Notes under the pieces: generated by a model
Database searches by the model: none
Seen by the model: only the letters and a program-made list of their open reading frames with translations
Told to the model about the DNA's origin: nothing
NCBI GenBank assembly: GCA_963693055.1
Contig: OY843751.1
Span: 6,080,001-6,144,000, forward strand
DNA: 64,000 nucleotides
Source: a bacterium
GTDB taxonomy: Bacteria > Zhuqueibacterota > Zhuqueibacteria > Residuimicrobiales > Krinioviventaceae
Direction of reading: 5' to 3'
Shown: positions 8,045 to 54,847 of the stretch, in pieces
How positions within the stretch are numbered: position 1 is the stretch's first letter
Layout of the letters: each line of letters starts with the position of its first letter
Program-made: the position numbers and the translations under genes

Positions 8045-8263
8045 GATCGCCGGGTGTATTTACGCCCGGCGGAATGATACCACCGGACATGTGTCCGGTT
8101 CTCTGGGACGAATGTCCGGTATTAAATCCGCCCGGACCCTGAGTTCTCACTCGTCCGCTGTCGCTTTGCGGACGAGTGAGAGTATCGAAGGGCCGGGAAG
8201 AAAAACAATATGAATATGATCTCCAATTATGATTTCAGCCAGGTAACCAAATACCAGGCGATC
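8045..8263 (+). repeat. Structured repeat family B, copy 2, with a nested ~110-bp insert
   Basis: Termini GATCGCCGGGT...ACCAGGCGATC; the insert contains a perfect 14-bp stem 8145-8158/8168-8181. Confidence 0.85.
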
Positions 8264-8353
8264 AAGGTACAACTATCAGACCCCTGACAAGGCCTTCGCT
8301 TAACTCATCAACCCTGACAATACCATTATCTTTCAATTAGCATTCAAATCTAA

Positions 8354-8430
8354 ATGTCCCGTTAGGGACAAAATATTTATAGAACTGTAAAAATGAGAAT
8401 TCGCATGCCGTCAGGTATGCAATATTGTAG
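8354..8430 (+). repeat. REP-like palindrome pair, family C (TGTCCCGTTAGGGACA; GCATGCCGTCAGGTATGC)
   Basis: Two short hairpins, each followed by AATATT(N)1-3TAGA; architecture resembles REP doublets. Confidence 0.55.
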
Positions 8431-8576
8431 AGTTTTATCATATATAAATAGTATCATATGACCAGAGGAGAAAAAGAAATTTATAAAACCCCCTAAAAAT
8501 ACAACGGAGCGTCAGATCATTAATAAATTTGGTGATCTGTCATTCTGAAAGTAATAAAAGGGAAATATAAAAGCAA

Positions 8577-9401
8577 CTAATTGTTCTTTGAAAGATTCAA
8601 CTGACTCCTTTGATTTTTAATTTTATCAGGCAAAAGATCAACATATTGTTGTATGACACGTTTGGAAAGTCTTGCCAGCTGGCTGATTTGATCAAGGTTT
8701 TTAATGTCATGCTTCCAAAGTAATTCAACACGATGGTAATCTTTGATATACCTGTCAACCGCTTCGTTGCTGTGTTTGGTTTTCAAAGCGATTTCGGGAG
8801 TGAGATATCCCTCAAGATACAGAGTGATAATTTCGCGTTTATGAGTAATAGCGCCGGAAAGATCATGGATGTTGCCACGCGTTGGTAAGAGATGCCCTTC
8901 TTTTTGGATTTCATTTACATATTTACTGACAACGGCATCACAGACACCGAGTAACATAGCCAGGTCAAGTTGAGTAAGCAGAGCACCTTGATCAAAAGCT
9001 TCATCAACCCAACGTTTGAGGCGTCTTTTCCTTAAAGTTTTGGAATCAAAACCATGCGCGATATGAGAAGTATCCTGATCAGTAATGAAAGAGAGGACAA
9101 CGGGTTTCATTCGGGTAGCGGCAATACTTTTTCCGCGTTTGGGGTATTCATCGACAGGAACAGCCATCCAGACGAGTTGCCCATAGTGAATATGGTGCAA
9201 GTCATCATCAATAGAGGAGACAAGGAAATAGTCATCAATGATTTTAAGGATATCATCAATGATGGCATTGGCAGTGATGGCTCCTTTGTCATAGCCATAG
9301 CTATTCAAAAAGTTGTACAGTAGTAACTGCTTGAGATCTTTATCTTTAAGTCGTCTCATTTTTTTGAGTTGAATTTGTTCTTTAGTCAAAGGTTTACTCA
9401 T
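8577..9401 (-). CDS. DUF1670-like protein B (HTH-containing)
   Basis: EAFDQGALLTQLDLAMLLGV, PTRG..HD, THKREII.LYLEG, KHS...VDRY; start 9401 with GGAGG RBS overlaps the stop of paralogue A. Confidence 0.75.
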   Translation of the reverse strand: MSKPLTKEQIQLKKMRRLKDKDLKQLLLYNFLNSYGYDKGAITANAIIDDILKIIDDYFLVSSIDDDLHHIHYGQLVWMAVPVDEYPKRGKSIAATRMKPVVLSFITDQDTSHIAHGFDSKTLRKRRLKRWVDEAFDQGALLTQLDLAMLLGVCDAVVSKYVNEIQKEGHLLPTRGNIHDLSGAITHKREIITLYLEGYLTPEIALKTKHSNEAVDRYIKDYHRVELLWKHDIKNLDQISQLARLSKRVIQQYVDLLPDKIKNQRSQLNLSKNN

Positions 9402-10233
9402 TTTCTTTGCCTCCTGATAGATGTTGAGGAATGGATTTTTTTTTCGCGTCGCCACCAGGTTCCGCAGGAGATAACAGATCGTTTAATCGCGTATTGTTTT
9501 GTTGAAGATAGGTTTGGTAGAGTTGGATATACTCGCGCACCAGGCGGTCGGATTTCTTTGCAATGAGTCGAATCTGGTTCGGAGAGAAATTTTCCTTGTA
9601 TAAAAGGGCGATCTGCATAAAGTCAGCGAGGTAACGTTTGATGCTGGTTTCAGAATGATTGGTTTTTTGTTCTATTTCTGAAAAGGTATAACCTTTAAGA
9701 TACAGATCAATAATGATGGTTTTATGAGACAGTCCGGGACCCATGTCATGTTTCATACCTCGTGTCATGATAAACATACCGTGATGACGGAGATGATAAA
9801 TGTCACGTTTAACAGTGGCCGGACTGGTGGTTAAAAGCATTGCCAGGTCTTCATAGCTGAGTAAAGCACCCTGATCATAGGCTTGTCGAGTCAGACGGGC
9901 GATCCGGTGTCGTCTAAGTCCGGCAAGGCCATAATTAGCCAGGGCTTGCAGATCTGTATTAAAGTCAATTAGTTTGAGACGGACCGTAAGCTTTCGGGTT
10001 AATCTGATATGTTTGCCGGCTGGTTCTTCAGCGGCAACAGCTTCATAAGCGACTTCACCTCCTGATAATGAAATGTTGGAATGTTCCTGAAAGTATTGGT
10101 CAAATTGTTGATAGTAAGCTTCGGCAATAATAGGAGTCAAATTGAAATCCTGAGACAGTTTTTGGACAATAGCGTTTTTAGCTGTCTTGGATTCGAGTCT
10201 TTTTAAACCATAATTATTTTTAACATCTGCCAT
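9394..10233 (-). CDS. DUF1670-like protein A (HTH-containing)
   Basis: QAYDQGALLSYEDLAMLL..S..TVKRDI, TRG..HD.G, SHK.III.LYLKG, NHS..SIKRY; paralogous to 8577-9401; AGGAG RBS. Confidence 0.8.
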   Translation of the reverse strand: MADVKNNYGLKRLESKTAKNAIVQKLSQDFNLTPIIAEAYYQQFDQYFQEHSNISLSGGEVAYEAVAAEEPAGKHIRLTRKLTVRLKLIDFNTDLQALANYGLAGLRRHRIARLTRQAYDQGALLSYEDLAMLLTTSPATVKRDIYHLRHHGMFIMTRGMKHDMGPGLSHKTIIIDLYLKGYTFSEIEQKTNHSETSIKRYLADFMQIALLYKENFSPNQIRLIAKKSDRLVREYIQLYQTYLQQNNTRLNDLLSPAEPGGDAKKKSIPQHLSGGKENE

Positions 10234-10481
10234 AAGAATCTCCTTATTTCTGTTTTTATTAAAACAATGATTCCTATGGTCATATGCACTAAACTTTAAA
10301 AACCGTGAAATCCTGTTGTTTTTTCATATTGACTATTATAATCTCAATCATTAATTTTTAAAATGGCGGGAGTTTCTTATGTTGCAGGGGAACGACATCA
10401 CCTAACTCATAATTCAAACAATACATTTAATACACTGAGTAAAATACGATTACTCTTTACTCACTAATAGCAGGGTCAAAT

Positions 10482-12146
10482 ATGAAAACCATAAACATTC
10501 TTTTTATTTACCTGATTACATTATCTATCAATGTATTCGCTGTTAATACTTTTCAATACAAAAAGATACTTCCCCGCAGTCAATGGTCTGACTATACACC
10601 TGACAGACCACATACCGCGGTATTGATGAGTGATGATGGAAATATTATTGTCGCAAGTCAGGCCTTTTCTTCGGAATGCATAGTAATGCAGAAAATTGAT
10701 CCGTATGGAAATCCCTTGTGGGCTGATCCTGAAACCGGTTTGAAACTCGTTGATAACACATCTTCTATAGATGTTAATTATTATCCGTCTATGGCAAGTG
10801 ATGGCAATGGAGGCGTATATATTGTTTATGCTGCCGGTATTTATGCAATAGAGGGAAATGATTGGAGATTTTATTTTGATACCTATCTTCAGCATTTAGA
10901 TGCTGATGGAAATAAACAGTGGAATGATAAAGGATTATTGTTAAAAACCGGATCATACCCTTGGGATATAGCCAGCGATGGTGAAGGAGGAGTGTATGTA
11001 TTATATTATGGAAGCTCTAATTGCGATCATTATCCGGGAACCCTTTTGCAGCATATTAATAAAGCGGGTGAAAAAAAATATCCAGGATTCGGTTTTGCTA
11101 TTATGGAATGTGATTCTTTATATTTAAACAGGCTTTATCTGGATGGCAATCATGGTATTTATATATCTAATAAAAATAATTATCTGCAGCGGATGAATGA
11201 AGAAGGAGAGTTTCTTTTTCCAATGCCATACATTGATACTGGCCTACCAAATCTACTTTTTCAATGGTTTTTTAATAAAGGTGAAGAAATGATTCTTGCT
11301 GGTAAAGAAAAAGGCACAAATAACTTGTATGTTCAAAAGCTGTCAGTTGATGGTGAATATCTTGGGAACCCAAATGGATACACATATACATGGCCGGATT
11401 CTTTAATTTTTTTCCCTGTAATAATTCAAAAAAATGACAGCACACTTTCTGTTTTTAATGGCTATTATGCACAAAACATTCAAATCAAACCCGTTTTTCA
11501 ATTTAAAAACCCTATCAGAATTATGGAAAAACAGATTAATTATCCTAGAGTTTTATATTCTGTTTATACTAAATTATATGGTACATTTATACTTTTTGGA
11601 GATGTGAAATATGAAGACGGAAAAAACCATTCACTTGTTAAAATGCAAAAAATTGATAAAACAGGAGGTTTGCCATTAGGTATCGAAGGAATAACAATTT
11701 GTGATACTACGAGTATGCTGTCAATACTTAACCCATTATTTACTATAAACGAACAAACTGGAACAGCACTGGTTTTTCTTGAATTTCAAGATGGTTTACA
11801 TGTAGCCATTGTTGATCTCAAAACCGGTACAGTTGTTGATGATAAAGATGAACAAATTAATTCAAAGATTCCTGATAATTTTATTATTTCCGGATATCCC
11901 AATCCATTTCACGAAGTAATCCATTTTACTATAAAAAAGCCTAATCTGTCCGACAGGATACAAACAATAAAAATTTACAATATTCTCGGAAAGGAGGTCA
12001 AAGACCTTACACAAAAAGAAATATCAACACACACATTTTCATGGGATGGAACAGATGATTCCGGTCAGCGGGCGGCTGCCGGTATCTATTTTGTTCAAAT
12101 TACCGCAAAACAAACATTCACTCAAAAAATACTGAAACTGAAATAA
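10482..12146 (+). CDS. Secreted beta-propeller-like protein with C-terminal FlgD-Ig/sorting domain
   Basis: Signal peptide; SDG.GGVY repeats; YPNPF...IYNILGKEV...WDG...GIYF. Confidence 0.75.
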   Translation: MKTINILFIYLITLSINVFAVNTFQYKKILPRSQWSDYTPDRPHTAVLMSDDGNIIVASQAFSSECIVMQKIDPYGNPLWADPETGLKLVDNTSSIDVNYYPSMASDGNGGVYIVYAAGIYAIEGNDWRFYFDTYLQHLDADGNKQWNDKGLLLKTGSYPWDIASDGEGGVYVLYYGSSNCDHYPGTLLQHINKAGEKKYPGFGFAIMECDSLYLNRLYLDGNHGIYISNKNNYLQRMNEEGEFLFPMPYIDTGLPNLLFQWFFNKGEEMILAGKEKGTNNLYVQKLSVDGEYLGNPNGYTYTWPDSLIFFPVIIQKNDSTLSVFNGYYAQNIQIKPVFQFKNPIRIMEKQINYPRVLYSVYTKLYGTFILFGDVKYEDGKNHSLVKMQKIDKTGGLPLGIEGITICDTTSMLSILNPLFTINEQTGTALVFLEFQDGLHVAIVDLKTGTVVDDKDEQINSKIPDNFIISGYPNPFHEVIHFTIKKPNLSDRIQTIKIYNILGKEVKDLTQKEISTHTFSWDGTDDSGQRAAAGIYFVQITAKQTFTQKILKLK

Positions 12147-12243
12147 TACTTATTAGAGGGGTAATGCAATTCAATACATTTGCATTTTTAATTTTATTAC
12201 CCATCACAAATTTTGCTGCAAATATTGATATAGGATAGGAGAC

Positions 12244-12324
12244 TGATACTTCTAAACATGTATCCGGTTCTCCGGGTCGAATATCCCGTCATAAATTCCG
12301 CCCGGACCCTGGTACCAGGCGATC
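12244..12324 (+). repeat. Structured repeat family B, copy 3 (5' truncated)
   Basis: TGATAC...ACATGTATCCGGTTCTCCGGG...TTCCGCCCGGACCCTGGTACCAGGCGATC. Confidence 0.8.
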
Positions 12325-12338
12325 AAAGCAAAATAATT

Positions 12339-18217: not shown

Positions 18218-19420
18218 ATGAAGAAAAAAACGTTTTTCCCGCTGTTATTCCTGTTATTTTTTCACAGTATCTCATTTGCAAGTATTATTCAAGGAAACTG
18301 GCGTTTTTACCAGGATGATGCCGCAGAAGGTTCTGCAACTGCCATTGCAAACGAAAACACATCTGTTACCGTTGCACCCGGTCAGGTAATACGATTAAGG
18401 GTAGAATTAAATAATAACACCGATGAATCTTATAATCCTTATACAAATGGCAACTATGACCTGAGATACAGCACTTCAAATGATCCGGGTTCAGGTACAT
18501 GGAAAACATTGAGTAGTTCTGAAGCTTTTGATTTTTATGATTCATCACACCTCACAAACAATGGTTCTGTCTCTGCTGATGTACTTACCACTACCAGTGG
18601 ATATATTCATGCTTCCGCCGGAATTATAAAAGAGGACAACCCAAAATTTTCTCTGACTCTTGATACTGATGAATCTGTTGAAAATGTTTTCAGTATTCAG
18701 GTAACTTCTAACGCCATAGATGCAACAAATTATTATTTCGCAGTGTTTTTAGCTGACACGAAACTTCAAGGAGGGTACGCAACAATTCCTTCGGTTACGT
18801 ATGATGCCTCTCTGCCGGTGAGTCTGGCTTCCTTTACCGCGCTGCAAGAGAAAAATACCGTACTGCTGAATTGGCGGACTGCCAGCGAAGTGGACCATCA
18901 GGGCTTTATTGTTGAACGTCAGGTGAACGGTTCATCCTGGATGCAGATTACATCCTATATAACAAACACCGATTTGCTTGCACGTGGTGACGTGAGCAGC
19001 GGCGCCGATTACGAATTTACAGATACCGATGTCCGTTCAGGAGATAAACTGAGTTACCGACTGCTCGATGTGGATGTAAACGGAGTAACAACCATCAATA
19101 AACCTGTTTCCATCACCATTGAAGAATCGGTTGTTCCGGAAAAAACCGCATTACTGCCGGCTTATCCAAATCCCTTTAATCCAGATACACGCTTCCAATA
19201 CCAATTAAAAGACGAAACCCATGTTGACGTGTACATCGCCGATCTGTTGGGTCGCACGGTTCGCACACTGGTATCCAACACCCGCAAGGAAGCCGGACTA
19301 TATAATCTCCAGTGGAACGGAATTGACGACCTGGGTACCCCGCAATCCAGCGGAATATACTTAATCGTTCTGCAGACCGGTAATCAAACCCAAATCCAAA
19401 AAATAACGCTTTTGAAATAA
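18218..19420 (+). CDS. Secreted protein with LPV-Ig linker and C-terminal FlgD-Ig/sorting domain
   Basis: Signal peptide; LPVSLASFTA...WRTASE; AYPNPFNP...WNG. Confidence 0.8.
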   Translation: MKKKTFFPLLFLLFFHSISFASIIQGNWRFYQDDAAEGSATAIANENTSVTVAPGQVIRLRVELNNNTDESYNPYTNGNYDLRYSTSNDPGSGTWKTLSSSEAFDFYDSSHLTNNGSVSADVLTTTSGYIHASAGIIKEDNPKFSLTLDTDESVENVFSIQVTSNAIDATNYYFAVFLADTKLQGGYATIPSVTYDASLPVSLASFTALQEKNTVLLNWRTASEVDHQGFIVERQVNGSSWMQITSYITNTDLLARGDVSSGADYEFTDTDVRSGDKLSYRLLDVDVNGVTTINKPVSITIEESVVPEKTALLPAYPNPFNPDTRFQYQLKDETHVDVYIADLLGRTVRTLVSNTRKEAGLYNLQWNGIDDLGTPQSSGIYLIVLQTGNQTQIQKITLLK

Positions 19421-53575: not shown

Positions 53576-54847
53576 ATGCATATGAGATCGTTAGTTACAA
53601 GTCTTTTTATTATGCTCCTTGCATTCAGCATTAACGCACAAACATCCGGTTATGCTTTGAATTTTGCTGGTGATGTAGATAATGTTGTATTTGGGGGCTC
53701 TGTAGCAACTACAGCTACAGACAATGTTACGTTGGAGTGCTGGGTCAAATGGGCTGGTTCAAATGCCGCGAATCAGGTCATTTTGTATAATGGTACAACA
53801 GGTTCAAACGGTTATGGAATAACAATTGATGGTTCAAACAGTAATGTCAGTCTGCATGTTGGAGCACCTTCTTTCCAAAATGCCGGAACAATATCGGTGG
53901 GGTCATGGACACATTTGGCAATTGTGCGTAATGGAGGTAATTGGACATTATACATCAATGGAAACGGTACTGCTGTAGGTAGTGCTGCACCTTCAACACC
54001 AACAGGTAATTTTAAGGTTGGTAACAATGAATCCGTATCGTGGGGATTTCAAGGTGTTATTGATGAAGTTCGTGTTTCAAATACGGCACGTTATACTTCA
54101 AATTTTACACCAAGCAACTCACCCTTTTCTACTGATGGAAGTACTACTACATTATATCATTTCGATGAAGGTTCAGGTCAATCTACAAATGATGAATCAT
54201 CAAGCAATAATGACGGTCAGCTGGGCCAAACAGGTTCTGCTGAAGGAACAGATCCAACCTGGGTATTGGGCGATGCTCCATTACCGGTGCTGGTCTATTC
54301 CTTTAATGCCAAATATGATCATGACAAAGTGACCATGAACTGGCATACCTCTCCCATCACTGAACAGGAGATTTTTACTGTTCAGCGAGCAATCGATCAG
54401 ACCTGGGTGACCATCGGTACAGTATTTGGAGATCCCGGCAATGTAGATAATTTCAGTTTTACAGATGATCTTTCTTCCTTGTCATCTGATCAAACCTCTG
54501 TACGGTACCGCGTGAGTTTTACCAATCCACAGGGGCAAACAGATTATTCTCCTGTACAGGTTGTTACCGTCAAGAGACCACAAAGCATTTGGTTGGCACA
54601 GAACCATCCTAATCCTTTTAATCCCGGTACGCAGATCACTTATGCGCTTGATGAACAGAATTATGTAAAATTGACTGTTTATAATGCATTGGGACAATTG
54701 GTACAAACCCTGGTAGATCAAAACCAATCAGCGGGAGAGTATTCGGTACAATTTAATGGAAGCAGTTTCCCGGGCGGCGTTTATTTTTATAAACTGGAAA
54801 CCAACAACCGGTCTGTCGACATTAAAAAAATGATCCTTTTGAAATAA
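53576..54847 (+). CDS. Secreted LamG-like jellyroll protein with C-terminal sorting domain
   Basis: TLECWVK, WTHLAIV, LYING, IDEVRVSN, YHFDEGSG; LPV linker; QNHPNPFNP. Confidence 0.85.
   Translation: MHMRSLVTSLFIMLLAFSINAQTSGYALNFAGDVDNVVFGGSVATTATDNVTLECWVKWAGSNAANQVILYNGTTGSNGYGITIDGSNSNVSLHVGAPSFQNAGTISVGSWTHLAIVRNGGNWTLYINGNGTAVGSAAPSTPTGNFKVGNNESVSWGFQGVIDEVRVSNTARYTSNFTPSNSPFSTDGSTTTLYHFDEGSGQSTNDESSSNNDGQLGQTGSAEGTDPTWVLGDAPLPVLVYSFNAKYDHDKVTMNWHTSPITEQEIFTVQRAIDQTWVTIGTVFGDPGNVDNFSFTDDLSSLSSDQTSVRYRVSFTNPQGQTDYSPVQVVTVKRPQSIWLAQNHPNPFNPGTQITYALDEQNYVKLTVYNALGQLVQTLVDQNQSAGEYSVQFNGSSFPGGVYFYKLETNNRSVDIKKMILLK

Follow-up and report, generated by a model that had tools for sequence, protein, structure and literature searches.

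Within the window, that is, the whole stretch of 64,000 nucleotides that was analysed, two tandem open reading frames on the minus strand, ORF A (10233-9394) and ORF B (9401-8577), overlap by 8 nt. Both match Pfam DUF1670 (PF07900), with E values of 9.8e-59 and 2.1e-62, and they are 34% identical over 196 aa, which confirms the pair of tandem paralogues described in the first-pass annotation. No other ORF of at least 80 aa lies on the coding strand of the unit. The absence of any DDE, HUH or serine-recombinase signature also held, as no such family was matched in Pfam.

The pair is flanked by inverted repeats at 8455-8469 and 10272-10286 that match at 14 of 15 positions, as had been reported; shuffling the two non-coding ends 300 times gave a match of this quality once. 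These repeats had been taken for the ends of the element or for binding sites. They are subterminal and asymmetric, with 7 bp on one side and 11 bp on the other, plus a 2-bp AA outside, and the true ends lie at 8446 and 10299. The element, here called F1, thus spans 1,854 bp of the minus strand, including the 2-bp repeat at each end. True ends, 2-bp repeat and target preference had all been missed. The features of the locus are as follows:

8446..10299, minus strand: F1, whole insertion element, defined by identical copies, the empty allele in the same-genus genome G001 and contig depth
8446..8447, plus strand: AA junction dinucleotide (recombination core or target duplication), single in empty alleles and repeated at the two ends of filled sites
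8446..8451, plus strand: AAATAG end, which re-supplies the Lys-stop at the end of a secretion-tail gene, from the sequence and the occupied tail genes
8455..8469, plus strand: subterminal inverted repeat, 7 bp inside the dinucleotide, conserved in relatives
8470..8576, minus strand: 3' non-coding stretch, unconserved among relatives, no Rfam match
8577..9401, minus strand: ORF B, DUF1670, 274 aa, with R130, H187, K188, H210 and Y218 conserved
9436..9444, minus strand: A9 run, candidate slippage site for an A-B fusion, 48 nt before the ORF A stop and followed by an open ORF B frame
9394..10233, minus strand: ORF A, DUF1670, 279 aa, with R113, H170, K171, H193 and Y201 conserved
10272..10286, minus strand: subterminal inverted repeat, 11 bp inside the dinucleotide, conserved in relatives
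10298..10299, plus strand: AA junction dinucleotide
12141..12146, plus strand: outside the element, unoccupied canonical target, the Lys-stop of the FlgD_ig/Por_Secre_tail gene 10482-12146

Copies, empty sites and rearranged forms

Genome BLAST detected six copies of F1 in the source genome (G000, 6.5 Mb). They share the same ends and are 100% identical, and all 6/6 are identical between the inverted repeats. In G001, five of the six F1 sites are cleanly empty and hold a single AA, while the sixth could be aligned at one flank only; the window site is an empty allele with one AA. A second DUF1670 pair, F2, measures 1,888 bp, has its own repeats and is present in seven copies in the source genome, six of them nearly identical and one about 92% identical. 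Six of the seven F2 sites are empty in G001, again with a single AA, and for the seventh no flanks could be located in that genome. Nothing is gained on insertion except the element and a single dinucleotide. In three runs of one sample, the contigs contained the same 1,854-bp F1 piece at about five to ten times the depth of its flanks; as this sample is possibly the source of the assembly, the contigs rule out little beyond mis-assembly. An assembly artefact as the origin of the F1 copies was rejected on the basis of contig depth together with the empty alleles.

Because six identical copies exist and five of the six sites are empty in G001 with a single AA, the 1.85-kb unit is a mobile element. 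F1 is a genuine insertion sequence that expanded recently and belongs to an uncatalogued family. The IS-sized mobile element proposed by the first-pass annotation was thereby borne out, and homologous pairs with conserved ends were found across several phyla. Each of the observations that it had named as refuting, namely a single copy, no empty alleles in relatives and no conserved flanking repeats in homologous pairs, was contradicted. REP-like hairpins do adjoin the unit, as it had stated, but they belong to the host flank, since the empty allele of G001 has them too.

No circle junctions of F1 or F2 were found in the Logan contigs of the three runs of one sample, in which rare forms are dropped. 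At one of 299 loci (L229), a right end, 2 bp and a left end are joined through a single dinucleotide; either the junction of a circle or a tandem insertion could account for this. Pattern scans for junctions, with one mismatch allowed, gave six matches, in 2 of 167 and in 2 of 401 genomes; the three inspected (L300-L302, as distinct from L303-L305) are left ends only. A promoter spanning the element ends was not supported.

Several copies depart from the simple arrangement. At locus L061 (G000:C1:507846-511585), an F2 and an F1 copy stand in tandem at one AA; F2 was probably inserted second, since the target is regenerated by the F1 end. L187 and L218 likewise have F1-type and F2-type ends side by side. 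At L062 (G000:C1:1346328-1350143), two convergent secretion-tail genes carry F1 and F2, respectively, and both sites are empty in G001. Solo F2 ends, which are relics, lie at G000:C1:333437-333465, at 5975640-5975682 and at one more tail end; two of the solo F2 ends are at tail Lys-stops. Non-autonomous derivatives of 131, 133, 160 and 552 bp (L224, L232, L267 and L168) keep both ends and are all located at tail Lys-stops. Internally deleted copies of 0.9-0.95 kb were seen at L043 and L048, and the deletion at L043 fuses A and B sequence into one frame of 166 aa. At window position 10137, a contig in all three runs joins other sequence to F1. This junction had no counterpart among the BLAST matches in the source genome and is perhaps a truncated copy in another strain.

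Target choice

In the source genome, 12 of the 13 F1 and F2 insertions lie within the final Lys codon of genes with T9SS/FlgD-type tails. These are 11 distinct genes, since at one site an F1 and an F2 copy occur together. The profile used to recognize the tails was built on flanks from other genomes, and it also detected the window neighbour gene, which Pfam places in FlgD_ig/Por_Secre_tail. Altogether the source genome encodes 241 tails, 161 of them Lys-ending, and 837 Lys-ending ORFs of at least 120 aa, a count that derives from six-frame calls and includes some spurious ones. Against this background (161/837), the finding of 11 of 12 sites at tails has a P of about 1e-7. The window copy of F1 is the sole exception among the 13: it is intergenic and off-motif, its site ranking 245,634 of 1.4 million AA sites. 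Orientation is fixed, F1 being antisense and F2 sense to the target gene. The end that abuts the gene reads AAATAG in F1 and AAATAA in F2; therefore the Lys-stop is restored and the host protein is unchanged.

The element ends are conserved among 48 relatives, which according to their record titles include Ignavibacteria, Bacteroidetes, Cloacimonadota, Poribacteria, KSB1 and Calditrichota. Both junctions were usable at loci from 30 of these 48, and 28 of the 30 reconstruct to AAR plus stop, in a search whose pattern demanded AA at one end and in which several loci came from the same or related genomes. An unbiased right-end scan gave at least 120 matches, at least 119 metagenomic and one viral. 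Among the matches listed with enough flank, 89 of 114 are at tails, and some of the non-tail matches, which have no DUF1670 nearby, are probably chance matches. By inspection, F2-type elements at six further loci are located at tail Lys-stops, as are 4/4 copies of a third subfamily with different repeats; more distant subfamilies carry their own repeats and, again by inspection, use other targets.

Upstream of the insertion point, conservation is strongest for A at -15 and -14 and for T at -11, -8, -5 and -2 (93-100% of 30), and the motif is conserved mainly every third base. In tails that end K-I-I-K-L-stop, the register is kept and the insertion falls on the stop codon itself (L169 and L216, both with DUF1670), which suggests that a DNA motif, and not simply the last codon, is what counts. 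By itself the motif is insufficient, as tail ends make up 133 of the top 500 genome sites and the score was no higher in occupied than in empty tails (13 versus 148, P=0.22). Selection against intragenic hits may sharpen the target pattern. REP-like hairpins as the target were rejected: they form part of the host flank, and the other five F1 copies are at tail-gene ends. The intergenic hairpin repeat families of the window (8045-8141, 12241-12333 and 8333-8426) have a few more copies in the source genome and a larger number in G001, with no Rfam match. In one further case (L033:716), for which one end is available, the insertion is at an earlier Lys codon of a tail gene and out of register.

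DUF1670 proteins and their range

In ORF B numbering, H187, H210 and Y218 are invariant (81 of 81 sequences), while K188 and R130 occur in 79; ORF A has the equivalent set R113, H170, K171, H193 and Y201. This Arg/Lys/His/His/Tyr set is kept in both subunits across sequences that are 25-40% identical. The conserved His residues are 23 apart, and no Ser is nearly invariant (best Ser in 61 of 81 sequences). NCBIfam gave weak HTH matches below cut-off only for both ORFs.

The predicted model of ORF B (pLDDT 87, pTM 0.64) comprises an N-terminal three-helix/hairpin part, a winged HTH at about 119-182 and two HTH after 184. Structure search with this model returned generic winged-HTH/HTH only (best Z 6.6, rmsd 1.7 A, 56 residues). 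Foldseek gave no match at E≤0.001 for the whole model in PDB and viral libraries, or for the first 120 residues in PDB; the VIA structure comparison gave no match at Z≥8, and sequence search detected no solved homologue beyond a designed HTH repeat. A topoisomerase VI A winged helix (Z 5.9, rmsd 2.4 A, 61 residues) was set aside as it tied with ordinary regulators. Residues 15-118 of ORF B show a weak, non-significant likeness to HU/IHF, with about ten rows at E 1.3-5.8 and IHF at Z 3.7 over 39 residues; hhalign gave E 0.027 and 0.046 with a probability below 2%, and reversed controls gave 0.19 and 0.45. Such a likeness would suit a DNA-bending A/B dimer and is a lead only.

A run of 7-10 A lies ahead of the ORF A stop, with the B frame open, in 45 of 51 gene pairs; the 51 include some broken genes and one false pairing across elements. 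Natural two-domain DUF1670 proteins occur, and the two that read through at the A-run (P0164 and P0165) may be sequencing slips. The heteromer of the two proteins suggested by the first-pass annotation was weakly supported. The predicted A+B complex scored 0.59 versus 0.00 for the best control, its runs shared at least 48% of contacts, and partner pLDDT was at least 69. The score counts as weak: among solved pairs 116 of 157 reached the mark, and among mismatched pairs 2 of 215, with values of at most 0.60 in 18 of the solved pairs and in both mismatches. A frameshift fusion is at least as likely as a heteromer.

DUF1670 was detected in 28 of 151 genomes of the source phylum and in one of 14 control genomes, that of Methanosarcina acetivorans. 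At E≤0.001 the family has 1,033 representatives (50% identity), and Atlas clusters with DUF1670 include Planctomycetota, Chloroflexota and Methanobacteriota. Databases label relatives as transcription regulators. The element had no match in plasmid or phage records, PHROGs gave weak HTH matches only, and one pattern scan of viral contigs gave a single match with no DUF1670 beside it. Larger architectures were also seen: proteins of 930-950 aa with several DUF1670 modules, the first of which is without the His/His/Tyr motif (P0005, P0007, P0015 and P0022), a class of 500-530 aa with a degenerate-plus-intact pair (P0116) and a fusion to a CHC2 zinc finger (P0133). Within the openly searchable literature, we found no paper on DUF1670 or PF07900; a prior listing in ISfinder, a subscription journal or a bioRxiv supplement is possible.

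Proposed mechanism and its alternatives

Our best explanation as a whole, which we hold tentatively, is an insertion sequence with its own two-DUF1670 recombinase that would work by tyrosine strand exchange over 2 bp. The two proteins would together form this recombinase and are predicted to bind the subterminal repeats. The element would be excised as a circle, a putative intermediate, and the circle would be inserted by strand exchange across the 2-bp overlap via the conserved tyrosine. The active enzyme would be an A-B pair, either as a heterodimer or as a fusion made by slippage on the A9 run. Y218/Y201 would act as the nucleophile, aided by the two His, the Lys and the Arg, a set that recalls metal-free phosphotyrosine enzymes. 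A protein, and not an RNA, would read the loose upstream DNA motif that is made by the hydrophobic codons of the tails.

That the DUF1670 proteins carry the chemistry is quite probable. For the conserved tyrosine as nucleophile, we see about an even chance; the conserved residues could serve DNA binding instead, because the model matches only generic winged-HTH/HTH. No homology to tyrosine recombinases was detected by profile comparison (hhalign probability 0.25%, E 0.24), and the His..Tyr segment compared with them no better than other HTH segments (E 0.14 versus 0.16). On balance, we think that DUF1670 probably represents a new class of transposase/recombinase, made almost entirely of HTH modules with a His-His-Tyr site, that drives bacterial and archaeal insertion sequences and of which three subfamilies read a secretion-signal codon pattern. 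As part of the same reading, this active site would be unrelated to DDE, DEDD, HUH, serine and Int enzymes, and the IS family would be widespread and uncatalogued, with hundreds of safe landing sites genome-wide.

The AA dinucleotide, single in empty alleles and present at each end of filled sites, bears on exchange versus duplication. At metagenomic tail sites (n=89, among the matches listed) it is AA in 79, AG in 5, CG in 4 and CA in 1. Two-ended metagenomic copies (n=20, among the matches listed) comprise 15 with AA/AA, one each with CG/CG, AG/AG and TA/TA, and two with unlike ends (AA/CA and AA/AG, AA being on the upstream side in both), which may be assembly chimeras. AG/AG ends were also found at L072. 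The identity of the dinucleotide follows the final codon (AA with Lys, AG or CG with Arg, CA with Gln) or else the stop codon, and it is constant inside each multi-copy lineage examined. IS630/mariner elements duplicate TA, and a DUF1670 transposase with a non-DDE active site might likewise act by staggered strand transfer with a 2-bp target duplication. Non-AA ends that are usually matched fit such a duplication, as does a dinucleotide that follows the last or the stop codon. However, all 11 used tail sites in the source genome are AA, although Lys ends only 161 of its 241 tails (P=0.012) and 77 tails offer a non-AA dinucleotide; the ends differ in two copies; the subterminal repeats are placed asymmetrically (7 and 11 bp); and the invariant residues are His, His and Tyr, not acidic. 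Within-lineage constancy and unlike ends fit exchange across a 2-bp overlap. We lean slightly towards a 2-bp exchange rather than a 2-bp duplication, and consider the staggered-transfer transposase rather unlikely.

It is distinctly improbable that the DUF1670 proteins are DNA-binding adaptors, with the chemistry supplied by a host enzyme (Xer recombinase or topoisomerase) or another element. The predicted fold with HTH-type domains only, the regulator names of relatives and the weak HU/IHF resemblance of the N-terminal part would all suit an adaptor, but His/His/Tyr/Lys/Arg are kept in both subunits at 25-40% identity, the family spans bacteria and archaea, and the A-run joint of the ORFs is kept as in IS transposase fusions. 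An RNA from the non-coding ends might also guide targeting, like the bridge RNAs of IS110/IS1111; the layout of subterminal repeats and a short core is indeed IS1111-like, to judge from parts of PMC11208160. Such a guide is unlikely because the 3' non-coding stretch varies in length (40-278 nt in 42 elements) and is unconserved in sequence: 0 of 41 align with that of the window above z 1.5, despite the shared target family, in a comparison by sequence only that a structure-only RNA could escape. There is also no Rfam match, and a target motif conserved mainly every third base argues further against RNA-guided targeting, to which we assign a very low probability. Near-random insertion in A+T-rich DNA, with the tail bias arising as selection removes harmful insertions, appears similarly remote. 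It would account for the intergenic, off-motif copy in the window and for a motif score that does not separate occupied from empty tails. Yet about 199,000 intergenic AA/TT sites took one of 13 insertions whereas 241 tail ends took 12, the orientation of F1 (antisense) and F2 (sense) is fixed, and non-tail Lys-stop ends are unused.

The recombinase reading can also be set against known systems. IS1, IS3 and IS630 are two-ORF insertion sequences, and F1 resembles them in size, in its inverted repeats and in a pair of overlapping ORFs with an A-run slippage site at their joint. In contrast to them, F1 has no DDE domain in Pfam or NCBIfam, its ORFs are mutual paralogues and its repeats are subterminal. 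Unlike IS200/IS605 and IS91 (HUH), it matched no HUH profile in Pfam, and its conserved His are 23 apart. Tn7 TnsD and tRNA-targeting integrases direct insertion to a safe site at a conserved 3' gene end and leave the gene intact. F1 shares the safe 3'-end site, but its target is a loose codon-derived motif in about 240 genes per genome and not one site. Tn916-type elements use a tyrosine integrase and a 6-bp coupling sequence. They resemble F1 in A+T-rich targets and possibly in a donor-derived junction sequence, according to sections of PMC12084037. In DUF1670 elements, however, only 2 bp vary by site, copies of one lineage are constant beyond these 2 bp without a variable junction of about 6 bp, and conjugation genes are absent. 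In contrast to tyrosine-recombinase elements (Tn916, Tn554, Xer), F1 has no Phage_integrase profile (R-K-H-R-H-Y) by Pfam, hhalign or the segment test, and the Int catalytic fold was absent among the listed rows of the fold searches with the B model.

IS110/IS1111 share a short junction core, subterminal inverted repeats of 7-17 bp and repeated target sites, as described in portions of PMC11208160. F1, however, has neither a DEDD (PF01548) nor a Tnp (PF02371) domain at E≤0.1 in Pfam, and it has two genes and short, unconserved non-coding ends. The serine transposases of IS607 likewise leave an identical 2 bp at ends and target; excerpts of PMC6188088 describe IS607 as being without terminal inverted repeats and needing only GG, whereas F1 has 15-bp repeats and an extended motif. 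A serine-recombinase domain (Pfam, NCBIfam) and a nearly invariant Ser are both lacking in F1. By analogy, the junction anatomy of the DUF1670 element would be most like IS1111 or IS607, and its site choice like Tn7 and tRNA integrases. No defining enzyme of any family tried was detected in it.

Insertion sequences are grouped by few catalytic types, namely DDE, DEDD, HUH and, less often, serine or tyrosine, as set out in parts of PMC11208160. An element that moves yet matches none of them would add a new chemistry of DNA cutting and joining, and would give a function to a Pfam DUF with more than 1,000 representatives at 50% identity that are now labelled regulators. The targeting is surprising in that the coding pattern of a protein motif is used as a multi-copy safe site with the gene end repaired. 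With about 550 residues, and derivatives of 131-160 bp that keep both ends, the system is small and might be developed into a compact tool for oriented integration. It is directly testable, as its residues are named and its targets known. Three unoccupied canonical targets, all tail Lys-stops, lie within the window itself, at 12141-12146, about 19415-19420 (+) and about 54842-54847 (+).
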